A stretch of 64,000 nucleotides of DNA, from the IMG/VR virus record IMGVR_UViG_3300020578_000020, positions 1 through 64,000 of that record, one strand, 5' to 3'. Position 1 is the first letter of the stretch. Every line of letters begins with the position of its first letter. Below, piece by piece: positions 31,786-42,070 of this stretch. The translations under genes were made by a program, and so were the position numbers. The notes beneath the pieces are model-generated. The model was not told the origin of the DNA and did no database searches. It saw only the letters and a list, made by a program, of their open reading frames with translations. The stretch comes from a virus. Its lineage: Duplodnaviria > Caudoviricetes.

Positions 31786-32089
31786 ATCCCTACCGTCTAA
31801 GATCAGCATAGAAGATGCTTTTAAATTATTCGATGGTCAGCAGCACTAAAGGGTTAAGTAGTCGGGGTTCGAAATTGAACTGATTAATTTTTATTTCATC
31901 GTTAAGCTCGGCCATTTTTTTTCAGATAGCTTTTGCTCAAAATAGATGACCACTTTTCGGTCTAAGTGATTTGCTTTGAGCAACTTCGATAAAGCGTCAG
32001 GTCTTTAAGCAACAACAAATTAAAAAAAAAATAAAAAAAAAGTTTGTTGTTCAATTTAAAACTACTATATTTGTAGAAAATAATACACT

Positions 32090-32254
32090 ATGAAAAACCA
32101 AACTATCAAACTCGCAAAACTCGCAGCAATTATTGTTGTAATTTCTATCTCTTTTTATTTGATAAAATCAATGAAAAATGAACCTCACAATTTCAATCCT
32201 GATAAAGATTGGAGTTTTATGTTGATTAACAAAGATTCTAATTTTACTAAGTAA
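32090..32254 (+). CDS. Small membrane protein
   Basis: 54 aa with TM; TATATTTG box upstream. Confidence 0.45.
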   Translation: MKNQTIKLAKLAAIIVVISISFYLIKSMKNEPHNFNPDKDWSFMLINKDSNFTK

Positions 32255-32271
32255 TTTATTAATATTTATAC

Positions 32272-33030
32272 ATGATGGATAAGTCATTTCCCCTCTTATC
32301 AATTTTAATTACAATAGTTTTATTTTTTGTTTTTTTTTCTCCCGAAAGTAAGACAAACAAGTTCGATTCATTTTCTGAGCGAGTTCAAACTGTTAATAAT
32401 CAATATTCAGAATCTGCCCCTGTAGAATCTACTACAATAACTAAAGGAGGTGGCGGCAAGAATGTAAAAGAAACATCGAGTAACAATAAAAAAATTTATC
32501 ATAGTTTAGAAGCTCAAAACTATTACAAAAAAATAGTTTTCGGTAGTGAATATGGTGAAGAAAGAACTAATCCATTAAAATGGATCGAAGACATAAAAAT
32601 TTATGTTGACGGGGAAAAAAAAGACTATTTGGTTATAGAGTTACAAAGAATTTTAAATGAATTAAATGATATTATAATTCCTATTGATTTGGAAATTGTA
32701 ACTAACAAACAAGATGCTAATTTTTTTATTTATTTTGGAAGTCACACTGATTTTAAAGAAAGTTATGATCTTGTTTCACCTGAAATTTTAGAACACAATT
32801 GGGGTTATTTTGAGGTCTATTATGCATCTGCCAATATGTATGTTGATTTGTATAGAACTAGAAATATTGAATCTCAAAAACATCTTTTACGTGAAGAATT
32901 AACTCAATCTTTGGGTTTACAAAATGATAGTTATGATTATCCTGAAAGTATATTTTATCAAGGTTGGACAACCACTACAGAATATGCGCCCATCGATAGA
33001 GAGTTAATTGACATGTTGTATAATAATTGA
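32272..33030 (+). CDS. DUF2927-like membrane-anchored protein
   Basis: N-terminal TM; HLLREELTQSLGLQNDS...SIFY. Confidence 0.7.
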   Translation: MMDKSFPLLSILITIVLFFVFFSPESKTNKFDSFSERVQTVNNQYSESAPVESTTITKGGGGKNVKETSSNNKKIYHSLEAQNYYKKIVFGSEYGEERTNPLKWIEDIKIYVDGEKKDYLVIELQRILNELNDIIIPIDLEIVTNKQDANFFIYFGSHTDFKESYDLVSPEILEHNWGYFEVYYASANMYVDLYRTRNIESQKHLLREELTQSLGLQNDSYDYPESIFYQGWTTTTEYAPIDRELIDMLYNN

Positions 33031-33181
33031 TATATTTGTTACATGTATGTAATTATGTTAGATTCACATGGTGAAGTCTTATAATTTTAAAAAAAAGAAG
33101 ACGCCGATGAATTGTCAAAAATTGCGAACGTAAACACGGATTCAGGTCACAAATGCGAAGTTAAACAAGTTTAAATAATAA

Positions 33182-33255
33182 GGTTCCGTAGCATAATTGA
33201 ATAATGCAACTCACTTCTAATGAGTAGATTTCAGGTTTGAATCCTGACGGGACTA
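33182..33255 (+). tRNA. tRNA-Arg(TCT), non-canonical D- and T-loops
   Basis: GGTTCCG/CGGGACT; ACTCA-CTTCTAA-TGAGT; T-loop TTTGAAT; no D-loop GG. Confidence 0.75.
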
Positions 33256-33274
33256 CAAATAAAAAAATTAAAAT

Positions 33275-34774
33275 ATGAAAAAAACACTTATAACACTGAT
33301 CTTATTAGCAATCACTTTTTGCCTATTTTTCTACACATGTTCAAATAGAAATTTAGGAGAAACTAAATTTAATTTTTCTATTGTAGAAAATAAAGATTTT
33401 AAGAATCTCCCAGCATTACAATCTTTTGCATTTGCCACATATAAAGATTATTGGATTATGTTAGGGGGAAGAACAAATGGATTTCACGGGTTTCCAAATC
33501 AACCAACTCCTGCTTTTCCTTATTCAAAAGCTAATAAGTACATATATGTTTATAATACAAAAAAACATATTCTTGATAGTATGAGTGTTTATGAATTGCC
33601 ACAAACAATTCAAAATCAGTATGCAACCACAAATATGCAACAAACTCAATATGGAGATTTTCTTTATTTGTGTGGGGGATATGGTAAGGCTGATTCATCT
33701 TCTTCATCGAAATTCATAACAGATAGTACTATCTCGAGAATAAATTTACCGGCATTAATACAAAGAGTTTCTCTCAAACGAAAAAACATAATGCTTGAAA
33801 CAATATTCGCTTTTGATTCAAAGCCGAACTTTGCTGTTTGTGCTACTGGTGGGGAATTAATAAAACTTGAAAATGGTAGTTTCTATCTTTGTGTTGGACA
33901 TAGATATTATGGAGAATATTCAGATACTTTGCCACCTCCAATACAAAGATATAGAAACAATGTTACGGTTTTCGATTTAATAGAAAAATCAAATTCTATT
34001 TCTATAAATCCATCTACAATAAAAATAATAACAGATAATCTTCCAGATACCACTACTCAATTTCATAGACGAGATTTAGTTGTTGCTCCAGCAATATTAG
34101 GAGATAAAAAATCTGTTGGTATTAGTATTTATGGAGGGGTTTTCACTTCAAAAAATTCAACACCTTATTTAAATCCAATTTATTTAACAGAAAAATCATA
34201 TAAAGTTTTTCCATTTAAACAACCTTCAAATCACTATTCTGCAGCACACATTGAAATGTATTCAAAAGAAAGCAATAAAATGTTTACAACCATAGTGGGC
34301 GGAATAGTAGATGGTTTTTCAGATACATCTAACGCAAGTTTTACAAAAAAGATTTTAACATTAGAAAAGAATTATGAAATAGATATTGTAAAATCATTTT
34401 ACAATAAAACAGAACTTGATACGTTTATGGGTTCAGAATCTGTGTTTGTGTTATCAAATAATTTATCTAAATACAAAAACAATTACAGTATCATAGATTT
34501 TGATAAAATACCGGTCATGAATAAAGATTCAGATTCTTTATTGATAGGATTTATTTACGGGGGAATTTTATCAACAGCAGCACAATCAAATCAATATCCA
34601 AGTTCTCGACAAACATTTGCACCAACGTTTTCTTCGAATAAAGTTTATTCTGTTTACATAAATAAATATTCGAAAGGTTCGGAATCAAACAATAATATTA
34701 TTTTTGTTTTTTTAATTTTCATAATTTTAATACCTATTTTATTTTTGTTAATAAAAAAATCAAAAAAATCATAA
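33275..34774 (+). CDS. Exported beta-propeller/kelch-like protein with C-terminal membrane anchor
   Basis: N-terminal hydrophobic signal; repeated hydrophobic-GG motifs; C-terminal TM plus lysines. Confidence 0.6.
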   Translation: MKKTLITLILLAITFCLFFYTCSNRNLGETKFNFSIVENKDFKNLPALQSFAFATYKDYWIMLGGRTNGFHGFPNQPTPAFPYSKANKYIYVYNTKKHILDSMSVYELPQTIQNQYATTNMQQTQYGDFLYLCGGYGKADSSSSSKFITDSTISRINLPALIQRVSLKRKNIMLETIFAFDSKPNFAVCATGGELIKLENGSFYLCVGHRYYGEYSDTLPPPIQRYRNNVTVFDLIEKSNSISINPSTIKIITDNLPDTTTQFHRRDLVVAPAILGDKKSVGISIYGGVFTSKNSTPYLNPIYLTEKSYKVFPFKQPSNHYSAAHIEMYSKESNKMFTTIVGGIVDGFSDTSNASFTKKILTLEKNYEIDIVKSFYNKTELDTFMGSESVFVLSNNLSKYKNNYSIIDFDKIPVMNKDSDSLLIGFIYGGILSTAAQSNQYPSSRQTFAPTFSSNKVYSVYINKYSKGSESNNNIIFVFLIFIILIPILFLLIKKSKKS

Positions 34775-34950
34775 AACAATCAAGAAAAAAATAAAAAAAA
34801 TGGAAGACATACACCAACAAATTCACGAAGAGTTTATTAACTCAGAAGATTATTTTCAATACATTAAAGAACTTTTTGAATATGAAGAAAAACTTACTTT
34901 ACAATCTGAAATATAAAAATTATTATTAATTCAGGTTAATAGATAATGTA

Positions 34951-35020
34951 AGTCGTATAGCTCAGATGGTAGAGCAATCTCTCAGTGGACGTGTCACAGG
35001 TTCGAATCCCGTTGCGACTT
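34951..35020 (+). ncRNA. tRNA-like RNA with shortened anticodon arm
   Basis: AGTCGTA/TGCGACT; canonical D-arm and TTCGAAT T-loop; only ~14 nt for the anticodon arm. Confidence 0.6.
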
Positions 35021-35096
35021 TGTAAATTTACAAAAGGTGTTGAAAACATTTCAACACCTTTTTTCTGCTGTCAATTATTTTTGTTATCTTTGTAAT

Positions 35097-35594
35097 ATGA
35101 AAAACAAACTCCCATACGAAAAGACAGGAAACGCGATTAAAGGATATACTGAATCTGTAATTGCTAAAAGTGAAAGAGGTGATTGTGTTGTAAGAGCATT
35201 TGCGTCTTCATTCGACGTTTCTTATGACTTTGCTCACAAATACGTTGCAGATGAGTTTGGAAGAAAACCAAAAAAAGGAACTTATGGGACTATTAAAACT
35301 CTTGTTAAAATGTCAGACAGTTTAATAAAAGTCAATGGTAAAAAAATCCGTCCTCTTGGAGTAAGACACAATGATCATTTATTAAAATCATTAATGTATG
35401 ATATTACTGTAAAAGGTGTGACTAAAAAAAGAAACATGACCGTTGGAACATTCGTTAAACAAAACCCAAAGGGGACTTTCTTTGTATTGGTTAGACAACA
35501 CGCATTTACAATTAAAGATGGTGTTGTTATTGGGAATCCTGAAGATGCAACCAAAACCAAACGACCTATGAGATGTGCCTTTGAAATTAAATAA
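35097..35594 (+). CDS. DCxVRA-motif protein, paralog of 12634
   Basis: GDCVVRAFA...HAFTIKDG; TATCTTTG 35085-35092 then ATG. Confidence 0.65.
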   Translation: MKNKLPYEKTGNAIKGYTESVIAKSERGDCVVRAFASSFDVSYDFAHKYVADEFGRKPKKGTYGTIKTLVKMSDSLIKVNGKKIRPLGVRHNDHLLKSLMYDITVKGVTKKRNMTVGTFVKQNPKGTFFVLVRQHAFTIKDGVVIGNPEDATKTKRPMRCAFEIK

Positions 35595-35683
35595 ATTTAA
35601 AAATCACTTGTTAATTAAAAAAAGATTCCTATCTTTGTACAAGAAATTAAAACTTTTTAGAAAACGATATAATTATAATAGAA

Positions 35684-35788
35684 ATGAAAAATACACTCAA
35701 ACATATGGTCAATTGTCTACCGAGCAATCAGTGGTCGTTTAGCTATATTACGCGTAAACAGTCGAGGGTATTTTCACTTATGAGTTAA
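35684..35788 (+). promoter_or_regulatory. Putative attenuator leader peptide (34 aa) upstream of tRNA genes
   Basis: MKNTLKHMVNCLPSNQWSFSYITRKQSRVFSLMS between TATCTTTG box (~35630) and terminator. Confidence 0.45.
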
Positions 35789-35819
35789 AAACGTTTAACT
35801 TACATAATAAAAGGAATGT

Positions 35820-35856
35820 AAAACCCGAGACATAAAAATCTCGGGTTTTTTGTTTT
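35820..35856 (+). terminator. Intrinsic terminator directly upstream of tRNA-Thr
   Basis: AAAACCCGAGA/TCTCGGGTTTT plus T-run. Confidence 0.8.
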
Positions 35857-35862
35857 ATATTG

Positions 35863-35934
35863 GCTCTGTAAGCATTGATGGCGATGCGTCTGACTTGTAA
35901 TCAGAAGAAATCAGTTCGATTCTGGTACGGAGCT
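35863..35934 (+). tRNA. tRNA-Thr(TGT)
   Basis: GCTCTGT/ACGGAGC; TCTGA-CTTGTAA-TCAGA; TTCGATT. Confidence 0.85.
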
Positions 35935-36059
35935 CAAAAAAGGTTCTTTGACATATTCAATTACAGTTGGTTCTAATCCAACTTGAGACACAAAAAATTT
36001 AGTAAAACTGAACGTTTATTACCAAAAAATGGTTAATTTTGTTCAAAAAAACTAAAACA

Positions 36060-36136
36060 CGGCACATATACCCTCCGTCTGATACGCGGTTGAAAGGTTA
36101 ATTGGTCCCATGTAGGTTCGATTCCTACTGTGCCGA
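36060..36136 (+). ncRNA. Rearranged tRNA-like RNA (no D-arm, GAT loop, long 3' linker)
   Basis: Perfect CGGCACA/TGTGCCG and GTAGG-TTCGATT-CCTAC; CCGT-CTGATAC-GCGG only 8 nt after the acceptor. Confidence 0.65.
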
Positions 36137-36265
36137 CAAATAGTTCACAACGGACAAGGCTTAGGCTCAAAGGAGGGGGCGGCCCTTGCTTTTGCTAAGA
36201 AACGTAAAATGGTCTTATAGTTTAATTTTTTAATATAGGTCATATTTATAGTAAAATAATATAAT

Positions 36266-36607
36266 ATGAAAAAGGTTTTAAAATTAACAGAAAACGATTT
36301 AATCAGAATAGTAAAAAGGGTCGTTAAAGAAAATAAGGATTTCAGAAGTGATATGGGAGTTAATCCTTTATTCGAAGAAATTATGGATGAAATTTATAAT
36401 ATGTTTGATGATATAAATGATGCAAATAGTATATCTGATTTGGAAATGATTGAAGATGATGCTATTTATTTGGCTAAGGATATTGAGAACTCAGATGAAG
36501 TAAGTGACAATGAGAAGGATGAATTGCTTGATAATCTTGACGGTTGTTTCAAACTGATTGAGGATATGTATCGTGATTTTGAAGAAGAAGGTGACTATAA
36601 ATATTAA
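36266..36607 (+). CDS. RLTESDL-leader acidic protein
   Basis: MKKVLKLTENDLIRIVKRVVKE. Confidence 0.8.
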   Translation: MKKVLKLTENDLIRIVKRVVKENKDFRSDMGVNPLFEEIMDEIYNMFDDINDANSISDLEMIEDDAIYLAKDIENSDEVSDNEKDELLDNLDGCFKLIEDMYRDFEEEGDYKY

Positions 36608-36626
36608 TAGGTAAAAACATTACAAT

Positions 36627-37154
36627 ATGAAAAAAATTATCAGACTTACAGAATCAGACCTTACTCGTATTGTCAAACGAGTGATCAAAGAAAATGAGGA
36701 GGGTTCTATCTCTGAAATTTACAAAGTAATTACAGATGAAGAAATTGAAAATTTTAAAATTAATTTATTAGAATTACTTAATAAACATATTTTAGGAAGA
36801 ATGAATCGAGAAAATTATTTAAATCATTACGATATCCAACACAGTTATAATCTTTGGAGAAAAAAGAACATGTCTAAATATACACGAAGACCATCAAAAA
36901 GATTTGATGATGAAATTGAATATGACGAACTTTCAAAAAATAAACAAGAAGAGTTGATTGATTTAAGAAATACAAACATTAAAAAAATTGGTAAACTTTT
37001 TGAAGAATTAATTGAACATTATAAAAACAAATATGATTTAATTGAAGAAGATTCAGGAATAAAATCAGGAATTGCGGACGTTCTTGATGTTTTAAATTTC
37101 GAATACACAAGTTATTTAGAACATATAATGTATCCAAACAAGTTCAAAGATTAA
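36627..37154 (+). CDS. RLTESDL-leader hypothetical protein
   Basis: MKKIIRLTESDLTRIVKRVIKE. Confidence 0.8.
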   Translation: MKKIIRLTESDLTRIVKRVIKENEEGSISEIYKVITDEEIENFKINLLELLNKHILGRMNRENYLNHYDIQHSYNLWRKKNMSKYTRRPSKRFDDEIEYDELSKNKQEELIDLRNTNIKKIGKLFEELIEHYKNKYDLIEEDSGIKSGIADVLDVLNFEYTSYLEHIMYPNKFKD

Positions 37155-37338
37155 GAAAAATACTTACACAATAATCATCACCCCGTATTGCCAAATGATA
37201 CCCTATTAAAAAAAGAGGGGGTTTTTTATTCCAAAAAAATTTGGCCAATTGAAATGAAGTCCATATATTTGTAGAAACCTCATCAATTGATGTGGTTTTT
37301 TTATTTTATTGATATATTTATTTATAAAGAATTTACTT

Positions 37339-38217
37339 ATGAAAAAAATCGCAAAAATTTTAATCGCACTCGGAATTGGTCTTATCGTAGCAGGAACAAT
37401 TCTTTGGAAATGTAATCAACCTAATCCAACCCCACCTCCACCAGCGCCAACAGTTAGTGTAGACACAACAAAATACACAGACGTTGTACTTATCAATAAT
37501 TCTAAGCTTGATTCAGTAGAAGTGTTTATTACACTAGAACATGGTAATAGTATTGTAGGTAAATTTGGTATGACTAAAGCCAATATTTATGATTCCATTG
37601 CTTGTTATTGTCCCCCCGAAAATTTACCTTGTAAAGGTTCGTTTTGGGCTAAAAAAGGTGTACCATACCACTTAGGTGACACTAATGTACTCAATGGTGT
37701 AATGGTAACATTTGGTGCATGGAATCGTGAATGTCAAGGAGCTATCAACGCCGGCTATCCACATGGCTTAAATAACTTTGAGTTTAATGTTAATACATGG
37801 TGGCAAGAAGGAAAGGTAACGGGTAATGGTGAATCTTTTGATATTACATTGGTGGACGGTTTGCACTGTATATTGAGACAAACAGCAACATCTACCGGCC
37901 CAAGAAATAGCAATGGACTAAATCCAAACTTTAGTGCATTTTGGGACTTTGGGCCAAAGGATAAATATGGAAAACTTTTACCTTTTACTACTTCAACAAA
38001 TGGGCCAACGTTTGCAACTTGTATCAACATACCTGCAGTTTACCCATACGGATGTGACCACGGCAATTATTCACAAAAACCTCCAACACCAATATGTTTT
38101 CCAATAAAGTGTTCTGATAAGTGGGGTGTTAATGCTTCGCAAACAAATCGTCAAGGACAAGGTGGACGAGTTACTTGTGAGTTTTTAGGTTTCATTGGGG
38201 AACCTGCAAATAAATAA
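37339..38217 (+). CDS. Membrane-anchored Cys-rich protein, thaumatin-like motif
   Basis: N-terminal TM, Pro linker, FEF...SFDITLVDG, AVYPYGCD. Confidence 0.55.
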   Translation: MKKIAKILIALGIGLIVAGTILWKCNQPNPTPPPPAPTVSVDTTKYTDVVLINNSKLDSVEVFITLEHGNSIVGKFGMTKANIYDSIACYCPPENLPCKGSFWAKKGVPYHLGDTNVLNGVMVTFGAWNRECQGAINAGYPHGLNNFEFNVNTWWQEGKVTGNGESFDITLVDGLHCILRQTATSTGPRNSNGLNPNFSAFWDFGPKDKYGKLLPFTTSTNGPTFATCINIPAVYPYGCDHGNYSQKPPTPICFPIKCSDKWGVNASQTNRQGQGGRVTCEFLGFIGEPANK

Positions 38218-38247
38218 AACAAATTAGCAGTAAAGAACTGCCCGATT

Positions 38248-38589
38248 ATAGAAAAAATAATTAGACTTACAGAATCAGACCTTGCTCGTATTGTCAAACG
38301 AGTGATCAAAGAAAATGAAATGTCCGACGACTATTATGATATGGACATTAAGGGTGAGGATGAAAACTTGGATATGGACCCAATATCACAATTCACACCT
38401 GAAGAATTGAATAAAATACACGATACGGTGTATATGTTGTCACAACCTGAGTTTTTGGATAAGGATGAAGCGGAATCATACCTTTTTTATACCGTAGCCA
38501 AAGAGGATGAGAATCTATACAATTCACTTGTCGATTGGTTGAAAAGAAATGGACTTGATAACCCTAGACTTCGACACGGGTATAGATAA
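38248..38589 (+). CDS. RLTESDL-leader protein lacking canonical start (ATA), possible pseudogene
   Basis: ATA GAA AAA ATA ATT AGA CTT ACA GAA TCA GAC in frame with track ORF 38302. Confidence 0.6.
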   Translation: MEKIIRLTESDLARIVKRVIKENEMSDDYYDMDIKGEDENLDMDPISQFTPEELNKIHDTVYMLSQPEFLDKDEAESYLFYTVAKEDENLYNSLVDWLKRNGLDNPRLRHGYR

Positions 38590-38689
38590 CTTAATTAACC
38601 CCCACCTCATCCGTGGGGTTTTTTATTTCAAAAAAGATTTGGAGAATTGAAATGTTTTTTATATCTTCGTAAAATAAACAAAGATAGAT

Positions 38690-39214
38690 ATGGAAAACTT
38701 GATAAACATTTTGAAGAAAGAAACTGAAACATTAAAAGTTCAGTATGTTGCTAAAACTAAAGAGTGGGCAAAAGACCAGTTTGATGCAATTGTGGTTAAA
38801 TTAAAATGGTCCGAACTTCAATGGTGTGACTATTTTGGATTGACACCTGGAGTTTATAATCAAGGAACTTCTTTGGAATTTAAATCATTTCCAAGAGGTT
38901 TCTACAACACCAAACAAAGTCGTGAGTATTCTAACTTCAAAGACAAAGCGGCTAAGATCAAAAAAATGGGTGTTGAGGAATATATGTTGGCTGAAGAGAA
39001 AAAAGCTGTGTTACACTACGAAGGATCTATCGTAAAACTTGCAAACCGAATTGAGAAAAAAGGTTTGAACGTAGATAAACTTGTTGTTGAAACTTCTCAC
39101 ATCGGTGTTAATATCAACACTACATTGACTGATGGTGAGAAAACTGTAAGAGCATTTACGATCATCGCATCAGGTGAGATCCAAAGACCACACTACAGAT
39201 ATTTGGTAAAATAA
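38690..39214 (+). CDS. Hypothetical early-type protein
   Basis: TATCTTCG box upstream; C-terminal IIASGEIQRPHYRYLVK. Confidence 0.75.
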   Translation: MENLINILKKETETLKVQYVAKTKEWAKDQFDAIVVKLKWSELQWCDYFGLTPGVYNQGTSLEFKSFPRGFYNTKQSREYSNFKDKAAKIKKMGVEEYMLAEEKKAVLHYEGSIVKLANRIEKKGLNVDKLVVETSHIGVNINTTLTDGEKTVRAFTIIASGEIQRPHYRYLVK

Positions 39215-39275
39215 TATCAAAAAAGATTTGCAATAACAGAAAAGTTTGAATATATTTGTAGAAACAATAAAACAT

Positions 39276-39614
39276 ATGGGAAGCTACATTTACACTTACA
39301 AGAAAAAATTAGATAAGAAAGTAATTCTTGACGGACAAGAAGTTAAGGTTGGTGAAGCTACTTTTTTATGTAAACAAGATTGGTCAGGAAATTACACACC
39401 ACAAGAAAAACGTGAAATGACAAGAGCCGCCTGTTTACTTGAACAAGACCAACCCAACTATATTATGTTTGGTGAATCAGTTTATAAAAATAATAAACGT
39501 GGTCTTTGGAGTGATGCTAGTGGTTTTTGGACTGGAATTGATTACAAAAAAGACTATGTTGGTAATTTAGAAAAAGTTGGTAGAAAATATTTTATAAAGT
39601 GTTTGGTAGATTAA
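39276..39614 (+). CDS. Hypothetical early-type protein
   Basis: TATATTTG box with upstream TTTG; start moved to ATG 39276. Confidence 0.7.
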   Translation: MGSYIYTYKKKLDKKVILDGQEVKVGEATFLCKQDWSGNYTPQEKREMTRAACLLEQDQPNYIMFGESVYKNNKRGLWSDASGFWTGIDYKKDYVGNLEKVGRKYFIKCLVD

Positions 39615-39808
39615 AATAAAGTTCTTATATTTGTAAAACAAACGGGGGTGAGACAATGTGATGGTGGACTCACCCCCACACAAAAGGTAAAAGTTCTTTG
39701 ATTTAAAATATTGTGGTTGTAAGAAAGGGGAAACTCGTAAAGTTCATTAACCAGTTGGCTCAAGATGGTGAAACGAGAGTGTGAGTCAACTACTAAACTA
39801 CAAAAAAT

Positions 39809-39882
39809 GGTGTGGTAGCTCAGTAGGTAGAGCAAAGATTTGAAACTTCTTGTGCCGATGGTTCGATTCCATTCCCATACCA
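39809..39882 (+). tRNA. tRNA-Phe(GAA)
   Basis: GGTGTGG/CCATACC; loop TTGAAAC; TTCGATT. Confidence 0.85.
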
Positions 39883-39889
39883 CAAATAT

Positions 39890-39963
<74 letters not shown>

Positions 39964-40037
39964 CTAAAGGGTGAATAGGTGGAAGGGCCTTTCCTGAAAG
40001 ACGGCTTGCTAGGCCCGTGTTCACCCTCATGAATTAT

Positions 40038-40114
40038 ACTGATGTAGCTCAATTGGTGAGAGCAGGACGCTTATATCGTCAAGGTTATGGGTTCAAGTCC
40101 CCTCTTCAGTACCA
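40038..40114 (+). tRNA. tRNA-Ile(TAT), CCA encoded
   Basis: ACTGATG/CTTCAGT; GACG-CTTATAT-CGTC; TTCAAGT. Confidence 0.8.
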
Positions 40115-40119
40115 TAATT

Positions 40120-40191
40120 GGTCCCATCGTCTAACGGTTAGGACATATGGTTTTCATCCATAAAATCGGGTTTCGATTACCCGTGGGACTA
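40120..40191 (+). tRNA. tRNA-Glu(TTC)
   Basis: GGTCCCA/TGGGACT; TATGG-TTTTCAT-CCATA; T-stem closed by T-A instead of G-C. Confidence 0.85.
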
Positions 40192-40216
40192 CAAACTTGT
40201 TGAAATAAAATAGGAA

Positions 40217-40299
40217 GGTCAGGAGTGTAAAGAGACATGGTGTTGAATCCGTCTGTTGAAGATGGTTACTCATTGTAGGTTCGAATCCTATCCTGACTT
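40217..40299 (+). ncRNA. Aberrant tRNA-like RNA
   Basis: GGTCAGG/CCTGACT; GTAGG-TTCGAAT-CCTAT; CCGTC-TGTTGAA-GATGG; no normal D-arm. Confidence 0.5.
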
Positions 40300-40411
40300 C
40301 ACAAGTGCTCACCACGCTACCCATCAGAATAGCGCCCCAAGGTGAGCTAGTGTAAACGCTTAATAGAACGAAGGCCAAGTTCAGAGCAGGGAGCGGGTCC
40401 TGCAAACATTT

Positions 40412-40485
40412 GGTCCATTGGTGTAATAGTAACATTTGTCCCTGTCACGGACAAGCCCTCGGAGCGTAACCGGGATGGACCGCCA
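40412..40485 (+). tRNA. tRNA-Asp(GTC), atypical T-loop, CCA encoded
   Basis: GGTCCAT/ATGGACC; TGTCC-CTGTCAC-GGACA; T-loop AGCGTAA. Confidence 0.8.
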
Positions 40486-40505
40486 AACTTATTAAATTAA
40501 AAACT

Positions 40506-40775
40506 ATGAAAACTTTTCAGGATTTGCCTTTTGATTCTATGAACGACGGATTTATGATCGGAAAAAAAGCCCGTATGCACTTTGATAATGGGTATGGAGT
40601 ATCTGTTGTGTCACACAATCATTCATATGGAGGTCGTGATGGTCTTTATGAAGTGGCAGTTTTAGATAAAGATGGTCTTTTGACTTACGAGACCCCTGTA
40701 ACAAATGATGTAATTGGTTACTTGAGTGAAGAAGATGTGACTGATGTTATGAAACAAGTTCAAGAATTGAAATGA
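40506..40775 (+). CDS. Conserved-type small phage protein
   Basis: FDNGYGVSVV...SYGG..GLYEVAV...DVIGYL. Confidence 0.75.
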   Translation: MKTFQDLPFDSMNDGFMIGKKARMHFDNGYGVSVVSHNHSYGGRDGLYEVAVLDKDGLLTYETPVTNDVIGYLSEEDVTDVMKQVQELK

Positions 40776-41371
40776 TGAAAAAATTGTTTTTTGTTTCTAC
40801 ATTATTTATGTCTTTTTTCCTTTCATCTCAGGTTAAGTATACATTAACAAAGTACCCAATTTACTCTAAAATATGGGAAAAAAAATATGACAAAATTGAA
40901 AAAAATGAAGATGGGTTACCTTTAATTGTTTTTTCACCAAAAGGTTACGACACGTTCGGAGACAACTTTTCAAGTTTTAAAAATGTAAGTCAAACTAAAG
41001 TACAATCATATTTAGTTTCAGATTTGAATAAATTCAGAAAGGACTACAAAAAAAGTCCAATTTCGAATAGTGTTGTTTTAACAAATAAAAGTATCGATGA
41101 TGCGAAAAATATTTCGACGGTTAAAAATTATAAAATTTCTAAAGAAAAAAATGTAAAAATTGTTTACGACTTTATTCCCGTAGATTTTTTCTCTCGGGTG
41201 GACGTAAAAAAATATGAAATTGAAAAAATTATTGCAGAGTCTGTTTTCGATTGGTTTGTTGCAAACGATGAAGGAATGTCATTACTATTAACCGAAAAAA
41301 GAAAAGAATTTGGACTTGGTGTTTATATTAGTGAAACTAAAGGAGTTACAATTGTGATTCGAGGAAAATAA
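40772..41371 (+). CDS. Secreted protein, possibly degenerate CAP domain
   Basis: Signal peptide; LNKFRKDYKKSPI...LL...FGLGV. Confidence 0.55.
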   Translation: MMKKLFFVSTLFMSFFLSSQVKYTLTKYPIYSKIWEKKYDKIEKNEDGLPLIVFSPKGYDTFGDNFSSFKNVSQTKVQSYLVSDLNKFRKDYKKSPISNSVVLTNKSIDDAKNISTVKNYKISKEKNVKIVYDFIPVDFFSRVDVKKYEIEKIIAESVFDWFVANDEGMSLLLTEKRKEFGLGVYISETKGVTIVIRGK

Positions 41372-41429
41372 AAAAGAGGGGTTAATAAACCCCTTTTTTT
41401 TATTTCTTACCAAAACTTAAATGTTGGTA

Positions 41430-41966
41430 TTATTTTCTAAATACGGATGCTAACTCTGATTGTGAAGCCTGACCACAAAAATTTTCTTTTAAGAAGTCTA
41501 AAGTGTTTCCATATCGTGAATTTATATTTCTTACAAGATCAGACTTGAAAAAAACTACTTTCAAAGTATCATAAAAGGTGTAAAAATCCGAAGTTGAGCA
41601 ATCAAAATATATTGTTTTAGGTATTGATTGACCAGCAATGGCCTTAGCTGACTCGACACCTGACATATCACCTGTATCTTTCTTAGCGCCAAATTTTGAA
41701 CCATCTTTTCTAAAATAAAGTAACCCTGGTATAGTACATTGTGTTGGGCTTGTTTTTGTAATTTTTGCCCCTCCTTTAATAATTAAATTTACATTTGGGA
41801 GTCTAGATTCAACAGGTTGATTTCTATTATCAACAACTTTGCCAATAGGACTGTCTTCGATTCCAAAACCTAAATCCATAGGAATAGTCATATTCTCACT
41901 TTCATTTATAACTCGTCTAACGATTCTAGCCAAGTCATTTTCTGTTAATCTAACAATTCTTTTCAT
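41430..41966 (-). CDS. RLTESDL-leader hypothetical protein
   Basis: MKRIVRLTENDLARIVRRVINE; TATTTAT upstream on minus strand. Confidence 0.8.
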   Translation of the reverse strand: MKRIVRLTENDLARIVRRVINESENMTIPMDLGFGIEDSPIGKVVDNRNQPVESRLPNVNLIIKGGAKITKTSPTQCTIPGLLYFRKDGSKFGAKKDTGDMSGVESAKAIAGQSIPKTIYFDCSTSDFYTFYDTLKVVFFKSDLVRNINSRYGNTLDFLKENFCGQASQSELASVFRK

Positions 41967-42070
41967 AATTTTTTTTTTAATTAATTTTTTTTTATTATCT
42001 TTGTTTAATAAATATATTACAAGTTTAAAAAAATTATATTATTGTTCAATTTAAAAATCTTAAAATAACT

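Follow-up and report, generated by a model that had tools for sequence, protein, structure and literature searches.

A candidate translation-coupled attenuator in front of a phage tRNA-Thr gene

In the first 64 kb of an IMG/VR virus record (64,000 nucleotides, hereafter the window), a tRNA-Thr gene with anticodon UGU is preceded by a leader that carries a promoter, a short open reading frame, a hairpin holding the stop codon of this frame and an intrinsic terminator. It is comparison with relatives, and not the window by itself, that shows the frame, its stop-codon hairpin and the terminator to be real elements. We propose that the leader is a translation-coupled attenuator of tRNA-Thr transcription, a reading to which we give a probability slightly under one half (about 0.45).

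The record is 106,306 bp long and 36% complete according to CheckV; the window has a G+C content of 30.8% and encodes a large terminase, a Hoc-like protein and further phage proteins. Relatives come chiefly from lake and river metagenomes and their lengths reach up to 272-304 kb; the record is therefore considered a fragment of a jumbo phage. An earlier note, made from the letters of the sequence, had recognized here a promoter box, a 34-codon ORF using 16 different amino acids, a strong terminator and tRNA-Thr, and had arranged them in the 1:2/2:3/3:4 layout of ribosome-mediated attenuators. All of these elements are indeed present where it had placed them (Table 1) and the terminator turned out to be a real, covarying element, but the layout as drawn is not supported, as described below.

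Table 1. Elements of the tRNA-Thr leader, in positions of the window
Element	Position	Strand	Remarks and basis
Promoter	35608..35637	+	TTG (-33) and TATCTTTG (-7), Bacteroidota type
Promoter boxes	TAnnTTTG-type -7 box at 35630-35637; TTG at 35608-35610	+	Sequence
A/U-rich 5' leader	35644..35683	+	Conserved AACGATATA-TTATAA block; alignments of relatives
Leader ORF	35684..35788	+	34 codons for 16 kinds of amino acid; codon 8 is a further in-frame ATG
Small hairpin inside the ORF	35721..35737	+	Codons P-S-N-Q-W-S; rare codons CCG, AGC, CAG and TCG; predicted by RNAalifold
Thr codon ACG	35750..35752	+	Nearly invariant; 16 nt before the antiterminator strand
Candidate antiterminator, 5' strand	35761..35779	+	Last ORF codons; pairs with 35811-35831
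Hairpin P2, holding the stop codon	35781..35802	+	Folding and covariation; tip of the candidate antiterminator
Candidate antiterminator, 3' strand	35811..35831	+	Conserved spacer and 5' arm of the terminator
Intrinsic terminator	35820..35856	+	Stem-loop 35820-35849 with 11 pairs, 5 of them G-C; T-rich tail to 35856
tRNA-Thr, anticodon UGU	35863..35935	+	ARAGORN (tgt); Rfam 50.1 bits; CCA not encoded

A conserved frame behind a Bacteroidota-type promoter

Copies of the leader were gathered from viral and metagenome contigs by an exact 32-mer and 15-mer taken from it, via the neighbouring 165-aa protein and by alignment of the peptide; a 24-letter consensus motif scanned against metagenome contigs matched at least 119 stretches. 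Copies cut by the end of their locus were excluded. Of 167 copies, 96 distinct ones of full length could be anchored on a few motifs, and four divergent copies lacking these anchors (L037, L039, L145 and L250) were found from the tRNA side, so that the total set comprises 100 distinct copies. A search for additional copies of the divergent middle motif described below returned only a contig already known. Among GenBank phages, blastn in distant mode detected no relative of the leader, its sole matches falling on 36067-36137. The 24-letter motif had no exact match in a collection of genomes from 185,579 species, and therefore at that stringency there is no sign of a host origin.

The TAnnTTTG box is kept in all 17 distinct relatives that reach that far, and the upstream TTG in 16 of these. 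The arrangement TTG-N17-21-TAnnTTTG, which we take to be the consensus sequence for the main Bacteroidota sigma factor, occurs at 12 sites on the + strand of the window and at 20 on the - strand, as compared with 3.9 per strand in block shuffles, which amounts to a three- to fivefold enrichment within the window. Three of these sites (33038, 35637 and 39633) precede tRNA loci. From the position of the boxes, transcription of the leader probably starts at about 35643-35646. The upstream flanks of the relatives are unlike each other and similarity begins near the -33 element, which argues that the unit moves as a block. Reading through the other tRNA loci of the window (33182 and 39809-40485), we saw promoters and hairpins there, but nothing like this combination of ORF and terminator. 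A TATCTTTG box is also found at 35086-35099 (+), and since only 3 nt separate its end from the ATG that starts the 165-aa gene, it suggests that the mRNA of this gene is leaderless or near-leaderless.

Within the window alone, the length of the ORF is not exceptional: when the intergenic stretch is shuffled 2000 times, an ATG-initiated frame of at least 34 codons arises in 9.75% of the cases. Among the relatives, the frame is open in 96/96 anchored copies, with 34-37 codons and a common stop position, and also in the four divergent copies, where it counts 27-36 codons (27 in one) and ends at the same place. L037 has lost the first ATG, and its frame starts at codon 8, where a second ATG is conserved. 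Within the ORF, indels are of 3 or 6 nt in every case, unlike those in the 5' leader and in the spacer, which are of 1-2 nt. The earlier note had made its reading depend on conservation of the ORF, and the frame is kept in 100 of 100 distinct copies. Because the frame stays open throughout and the indels come in multiples of three, we consider that there is strong indirect evidence for translation of the ORF.

Codons and residues of the leader peptide

The ORF had been described as rich in codons unusual for this genome. This richness is real, since 11 of its 34 codons have an RSCU of at most 0.52 and 13 of 34 lie below 0.7, the reference being the 101 ORFs of at least 120 aa in the 106-kb record; moreover, these codons are conserved among relatives rather than drifting. 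CCG is present in 96/96 copies, TCG accounts for 95/95 of the Ser codons at its position and ACG is found in 94/96; CAG (83/84), AGC (81/85) and GTC (66/69) are also close to fixation, while the fixation of AGG and of the last codons is partly a product of the way the copies were collected. When we compared the leader with the neighbouring 165-aa gene in the same nine contigs, codon identity to the window at conserved residues was 78-97% (about 90%) for the leader and 53-76% (about 60%) for the neighbour, although amino-acid identity was not higher for the leader (44-97%) than for the neighbour (64-88%).

Two divergent copies, L037 and L145, are instructive in this respect: in place of the central P-S-N-Q-W-S-F motif they carry an unrelated one that contains Thr codons in tandem, and frame, C-terminus, P2 and terminator are retained. 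In addition, codons 26-31 of the leader are hypervariable. Because of the synonymous conservation, the fixed rare codons and this motif replacement, selection acts on the frame and on the nucleotides no less than on the peptide, a pattern better matched by a cis-acting leader than by an ordinary small protein. An RNA hairpin within the ORF is an equally good explanation of the conserved rare codons. The small hairpin listed in Table 1 has invariant stems, with variable letters confined to its loop and no covariation by RNAalifold, and its motif is the one replaced in the two divergent copies; if this CCG...TCG hairpin is real, it explains the fixation of those rare codons.

The main rival of an attenuator is a gene for a small protein, followed by a terminator that leaks. 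The leader would then be an ordinary small phage gene with its own promoter and terminator, coding for a basic, aromatic-rich peptide of 34 residues that acts in trans; tRNA-Thr would be made by constitutive leak-through or from an unseen type of promoter, and the linkage between the two would be synteny. The promoter-ORF-terminator layout is complete, as such a gene requires, and thirteen residues spread over the whole length of the peptide are invariant, which is unusual for codon-sensing leaders. In phage T5, small ORFs also lie between tRNA genes. In addition, one copy (L239) has no tRNA behind the leader, its place being taken by a promoter and a protein gene. However, a protein gene accounts poorly for synonymous sites that are far more conserved than those of the neighbour at no higher amino-acid identity, for rare codons fixed in spite of an AT-rich genome and for a central motif that can be exchanged while everything around it stays. 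The 34-aa product matches no Pfam family at E <= 1 and no PHROGs family at E <= 1e-5, and the link to the tRNA holds in 97 of 100 copies across three types of tRNA sequence. We therefore regard this explanation as rather unlikely. Should it be correct, the finding would be an ordinary one.

The Thr codons were looked at in the same copies. At 35750-35752, ACG is replaced by ACA in 2/96 copies, and the Thr codon is absent in the divergent L145. Elsewhere, ACA stands at codon 3 in 78/96 copies and Thr at codon 4 in 80/96; L037 and L145 carry a tandem ACC-ACA, and no copy has a long Thr run. Each leader contains 2-4 Thr codons in 27-37. The peptide of the window has 2 Thr in 34 residues, which equals the genome average, and a run of regulatory codons is absent; a Thr-specific sensor, though not rejected, is not supported by the Thr content of the window.

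Alternative RNA structures and the proposed switch

The terminator is a supported RNA structure and covaries strongly. Among 60 distinct arm sets, the four pairs of its stem that vary are kept in 59-60, each with 3-6 pair types; covariation is also seen by RNAalifold across 16 relatives and the T run is present in all copies. Hairpin P2 covaries at one pair (AU 8 and UA 6 of 16; AU 29 and UA 53 of 92), and in L039, from an alignment read by eye, a hairpin is rebuilt at the same place from a different sequence. RNAalifold shows no covarying structure apart from the terminator, P2 and the small hairpin. With 92 sequences it pairs the 5' leader and the start codon with the last codons of the ORF, a pairing for which covariation is absent, every column being invariant or changed on one side only.

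The full leader folds better than its shuffles (z -2.52), and the ORF region alone folds like them (z -0.41). The 1:2 pairing proposed earlier, between 35688-35700 and 35762-35774, is present with 11 of 13 complementary positions; this is chance level, as at least 11/13 is reached in 24.5% of 200 leader shuffles. Across 16 relatives it is paired in 66.3% of cells versus 65.6% in shuffles and, given also the score of the ORF region, we rejected it as a conserved element. Among the relatives we found no conserved anti-antiterminator or pause structure of the 1:2 kind, and the three-part layout as drawn is not supported. The weaker 2:3 pairing is kept in 98.2% of cells; both of its sides are invariant, hence uninformative.

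A structure mutually exclusive with the terminator was nevertheless seen by folding transcripts cut before the 3' arm of the terminator. It is a longer helix than the one first drawn, and in the window it takes in nine letters of the terminator 5' arm. The stretch 35755-35838 has a minimum free energy of -15.5 kcal/mol, compared with -8.6 +/- 2.2 kcal/mol in shuffles (z -3.16); the score is similar in a second clade (z -2.83) and at shuffle level in the representative of another, large clade (z -0.25). Pairing of the terminator arm brings a gain of -9.0 kcal/mol in the window, equalled by 1 of 30 shuffles. This gain is -6 kcal/mol or better in 37 of 74 distinct sequences, the shuffle mean being -2.1, but in 26 of the 74 it is weaker than -4 kcal/mol and the antiterminator is indistinguishable from shuffles. 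An alternative to the terminator, as had been claimed, is significant in the clade of the window and is not in about a third of the family. Own strands pair more favourably than swapped ones (-8.89 vs -8.12 kcal/mol; 0/5000 permutations). A tree built without the antiterminator columns leaves only 3 independent contrasts and does not support covariation, so that co-evolution of the strand with the terminator arm was rejected as evidence in spite of the positive permutation result. The folding energies indicate that the alternative structure is real in the lineage of the window; a family-wide co-evolving element is not established.

The attenuator that we propose would work as follows. Promoter, 5' leader, ORF, stop-codon hairpin, terminator and tRNA-Thr(UGU) would form a single transcription unit, in which the terminator would set the share of transcripts reaching the tRNA and translation of the ORF would bias the outcome. 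The last eight or so codons of the ORF would pair with the spacer and the terminator 5' arm, with P2 as the tip of this long hairpin. As long as the hairpin stands, the terminator would be blocked and RNA polymerase would continue into the tRNA. A ribosome reaching the stop codon would unzip the 5' strand and P2, setting free the terminator 5' arm, and transcription would stop at 35850-35856. If a ribosome were slowed earlier in the ORF, the antiterminator would stay in place; this might happen at the fixed rare codons CCG, AGC, CAG, TCG and GTC, or at the Thr codons ACA/ACG, which are read by the downstream tRNA. Slow decoding would in this way yield more phage tRNA-Thr. The start of translation, the switch, its direction and the codons that matter are all inferred.

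Feedback on tRNA-Thr(UGU) is possible, because the conserved ACG lies 16 nt before the antiterminator strand and ACG and ACA are read by that tRNA; a spacing of 16 nt between codon and antiterminator matches that of classical attenuators. The evidence does not separate a Thr-specific sensor, a general sensor of decoding speed and no sensor at all. A broader reading, which we hold more tentatively than that of an attenuator as such, is that the phage gauges the decoding speed of its host on a 34-codon test frame made of fixed rare codons and Thr codons, and opens the terminator for tRNA-Thr(UGU) when decoding is slow. The leader would then belong to a wider, undescribed class of translation-sensing switches before phage tRNA genes, possibly tied to depletion or cleavage of host tRNAs.

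A different use of translation is known from TnaC and SpeFL, short conserved peptides of 24-34 residues that act at their own stop codon on a downstream terminator, via Rho-dependent termination and ligand-dependent inhibition of release factor. If the leader peptide were an arrest peptide of this kind, a small molecule or factor would cause the nascent chain to stall the terminating ribosome, and the stalled ribosome on P2 would alter use of the terminator. Several features are in keeping with it: conservation extends over the full length and is strongest in the last seven residues before the stop codon, a Trp is invariant in 96/96 copies of the main type, 34-37 residues correspond to the length of the exit tunnel, and the stop codon sits in a conserved hairpin. 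We consider it improbable all the same. L037 and L145 lack the Trp motif. Sitting on the stop codon, a ribosome would occupy roughly 35771-35800, destroying the candidate antiterminator and falling short of the terminator; arrest would therefore favour termination and not relieve it. The phage terminator, unlike those of TnaC and SpeFL, is an intrinsic one, and it is not obvious that stalling at the stop codon would keep it from acting. Selection on the peptide and on the RNA are not separable, since the invariant residues are just as fixed at the nucleotide level.

The attenuators of amino-acid operons (E. coli trpL, thrL, hisL and leuL; Rfam Thr_leader etc.) offer the closest comparison for the translation-coupled attenuator. 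They have in common with the phage leader a short promoter-proximal ORF, an intrinsic terminator before the regulated gene, a candidate alternative structure with its 5' strand in the last codons of the ORF, between which and the terminator ribosome progress could choose, and a similar geometry, with a conserved codon 16 nt before the antiterminator strand. In contrast to them, the phage leader would control a tRNA and not a biosynthetic operon, it has no run of cognate codons in tandem, shows no conserved 1:2 or pause hairpin, its peptide is rich in invariant residues, its antiterminator is weak in a third of the family, its promoter is of the Bacteroidota type and it matches no Rfam leader. 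T-box riboswitches are also cis-acting leaders with a terminator that adjust expression to the state of tRNA, but they bind uncharged tRNA directly, without translation, and control synthetase and amino-acid genes, whereas the phage leader has a conserved frame. No Rfam T-box model matched 35640-35862 at E <= 1; over 32000-42000, cmscan at the same threshold returned only tRNAs and two weak sRNA matches located outside the leader.

The tRNA regions of phages T4 and T5 also place phage tRNAs beside a small conserved transcript or ORF, with a promoter of the early type; in T4, the small stable RNAs called species 1 and 2 are co-transcribed with tRNAs. We know of no terminator switch or conserved translated leader described directly before a tRNA in these regions. 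The control of tRNA genes is generally ascribed to their promoters and to processing. A full-text search of openly accessible papers, judged by titles and abstract openings, gave no description of leader-peptide attenuation of a tRNA gene. If our proposal is right, a ribosome-coupled terminator switch before a tRNA would be a new use of attenuation with a new class of target, and would provide the phage with direct feedback from decoding speed to tRNA supply. It would bear on the question of why phages carry tRNAs, that is, compensation of codon usage versus escape from host defences that target tRNAs. The module is about 250 nt long and, with at least 119 contigs, abundant in freshwater metagenomes.

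Linkage to tRNA-Thr, transcripts and neighbouring elements

ARAGORN detected tRNA-Thr(tgt) behind the leader in 93/96 anchored copies, 178-192 nt after the ATG, and in the complete set a tRNA-Thr(UGU) follows within about 6-20 nt of the terminator in 97 of 100 copies. The sequences of this tRNA fall into three divergent types. Near-identical leaders are joined to different types, and therefore the link has outlived recombination. Exceptions are few. In L133, leader and terminator are followed by a Trp-Cys-Leu array in place of tRNA-Thr; in L245, a Thr-like gene that ARAGORN does not call, and which is a degenerate tRNA, precedes five tRNAs (a Ser-Gln-Pro-Ile-Tyr array). A related phage (L026) also has, as a member of an array, a different tRNA-Thr(UGU) that this leader does not precede.

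A promoter belonging to tRNA-Thr itself had been named as contrary to attenuation. No recognisable promoter lies in the gap of 6-20 nt between terminator and tRNA, and there is no TAnnTTTG box in or near it, either in the window or in the relatives; a phage-specific promoter of an unrecognised type could serve tRNA-Thr. Directly after the tRNA, at 35943-35957 (+), we observed GTTCTTTGACATATT, which is conserved in relatives and agrees with positions 1-15 in the consensus of the Rfam DUF2693 RNA (15.6 bits, E 0.81). At about 39697, the leader of a tRNA array contains the similar GTTCTTTGAT, and the two may represent a second type of promoter or an RNA motif.

Relatives of the leader were also found in metatranscriptomes, as assembled contigs from four runs of four studies. 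Contigs corresponding to 35684-35857 and 35612-35844 end at the terminator, and others, corresponding to 35756-35911 and 35685-35957, bridge it into the tRNA; their depths are 2-4, and 20.6 in one run, it being understood that such contigs may derive from DNA, give neither ends nor levels, and are uninformative in the parts that they do not cover. One of them starts upstream of the predicted transcription start, for which DNA carry-over or upstream transcription is possible. Taken together, the contigs hint, at most weakly, at termination in some transcripts and readthrough in others.

The contig with a depth of 20.6 covers the leader and not its flanks, as a stable small RNA or an element of processing or stability might. 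RNase P, cutting at the 5' end of the tRNA, would free an RNA of about 210 nt ending in the terminator hairpin, similar to the small stable RNAs made together with the tRNAs of T4, and the open frame would be secondary. The very high conservation at the nucleotide level and the folding score of the full leader are also in line with such an RNA. We give it little credit, since a non-coding RNA would not be expected to keep its indels in frame and a frame intact in all copies, no Rfam family matches the leader at E <= 1 and the covarying structure of the leader does not extend beyond P2, the small hairpin and the terminator.

Several further elements lie around the leader. On its upstream side, ARAGORN calls a tRNA of unknown identity at 34950-35021 (+); because its anticodon is given with two letters only ('ag') and it nonetheless scores 40 bits against the Rfam tRNA model, its anticodon loop is considered odd. 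A terminator-like hairpin follows it at about 35033-35065. On the downstream side, a tRNA-like RNA without D arm and with a long variable region is found at 36060-36136 (+). It scores 29.0 bits with the Rfam tRNA model, which is exactly the threshold, is not called by ARAGORN, and is about 82% identical, along 71 nt, to stretches that lack annotation in about 40 Streptomyces phages and in one uncultured phage of 462 kb. The spacers between array tRNA genes at 39965-40037 and 40193-40411 (+) are G+C-rich and apparently structured, and a tRNA-like stretch with a long arm, called by no tool, lies at about 40215-40300. Finally, the adjacent ORFs 36266-36607 and 36627-37154 (+) are nearly identical in their 25 N-terminal residues (MKK..LTE.DL.RIVKRV.KEN) and then diverge, and they are probably paralogues.
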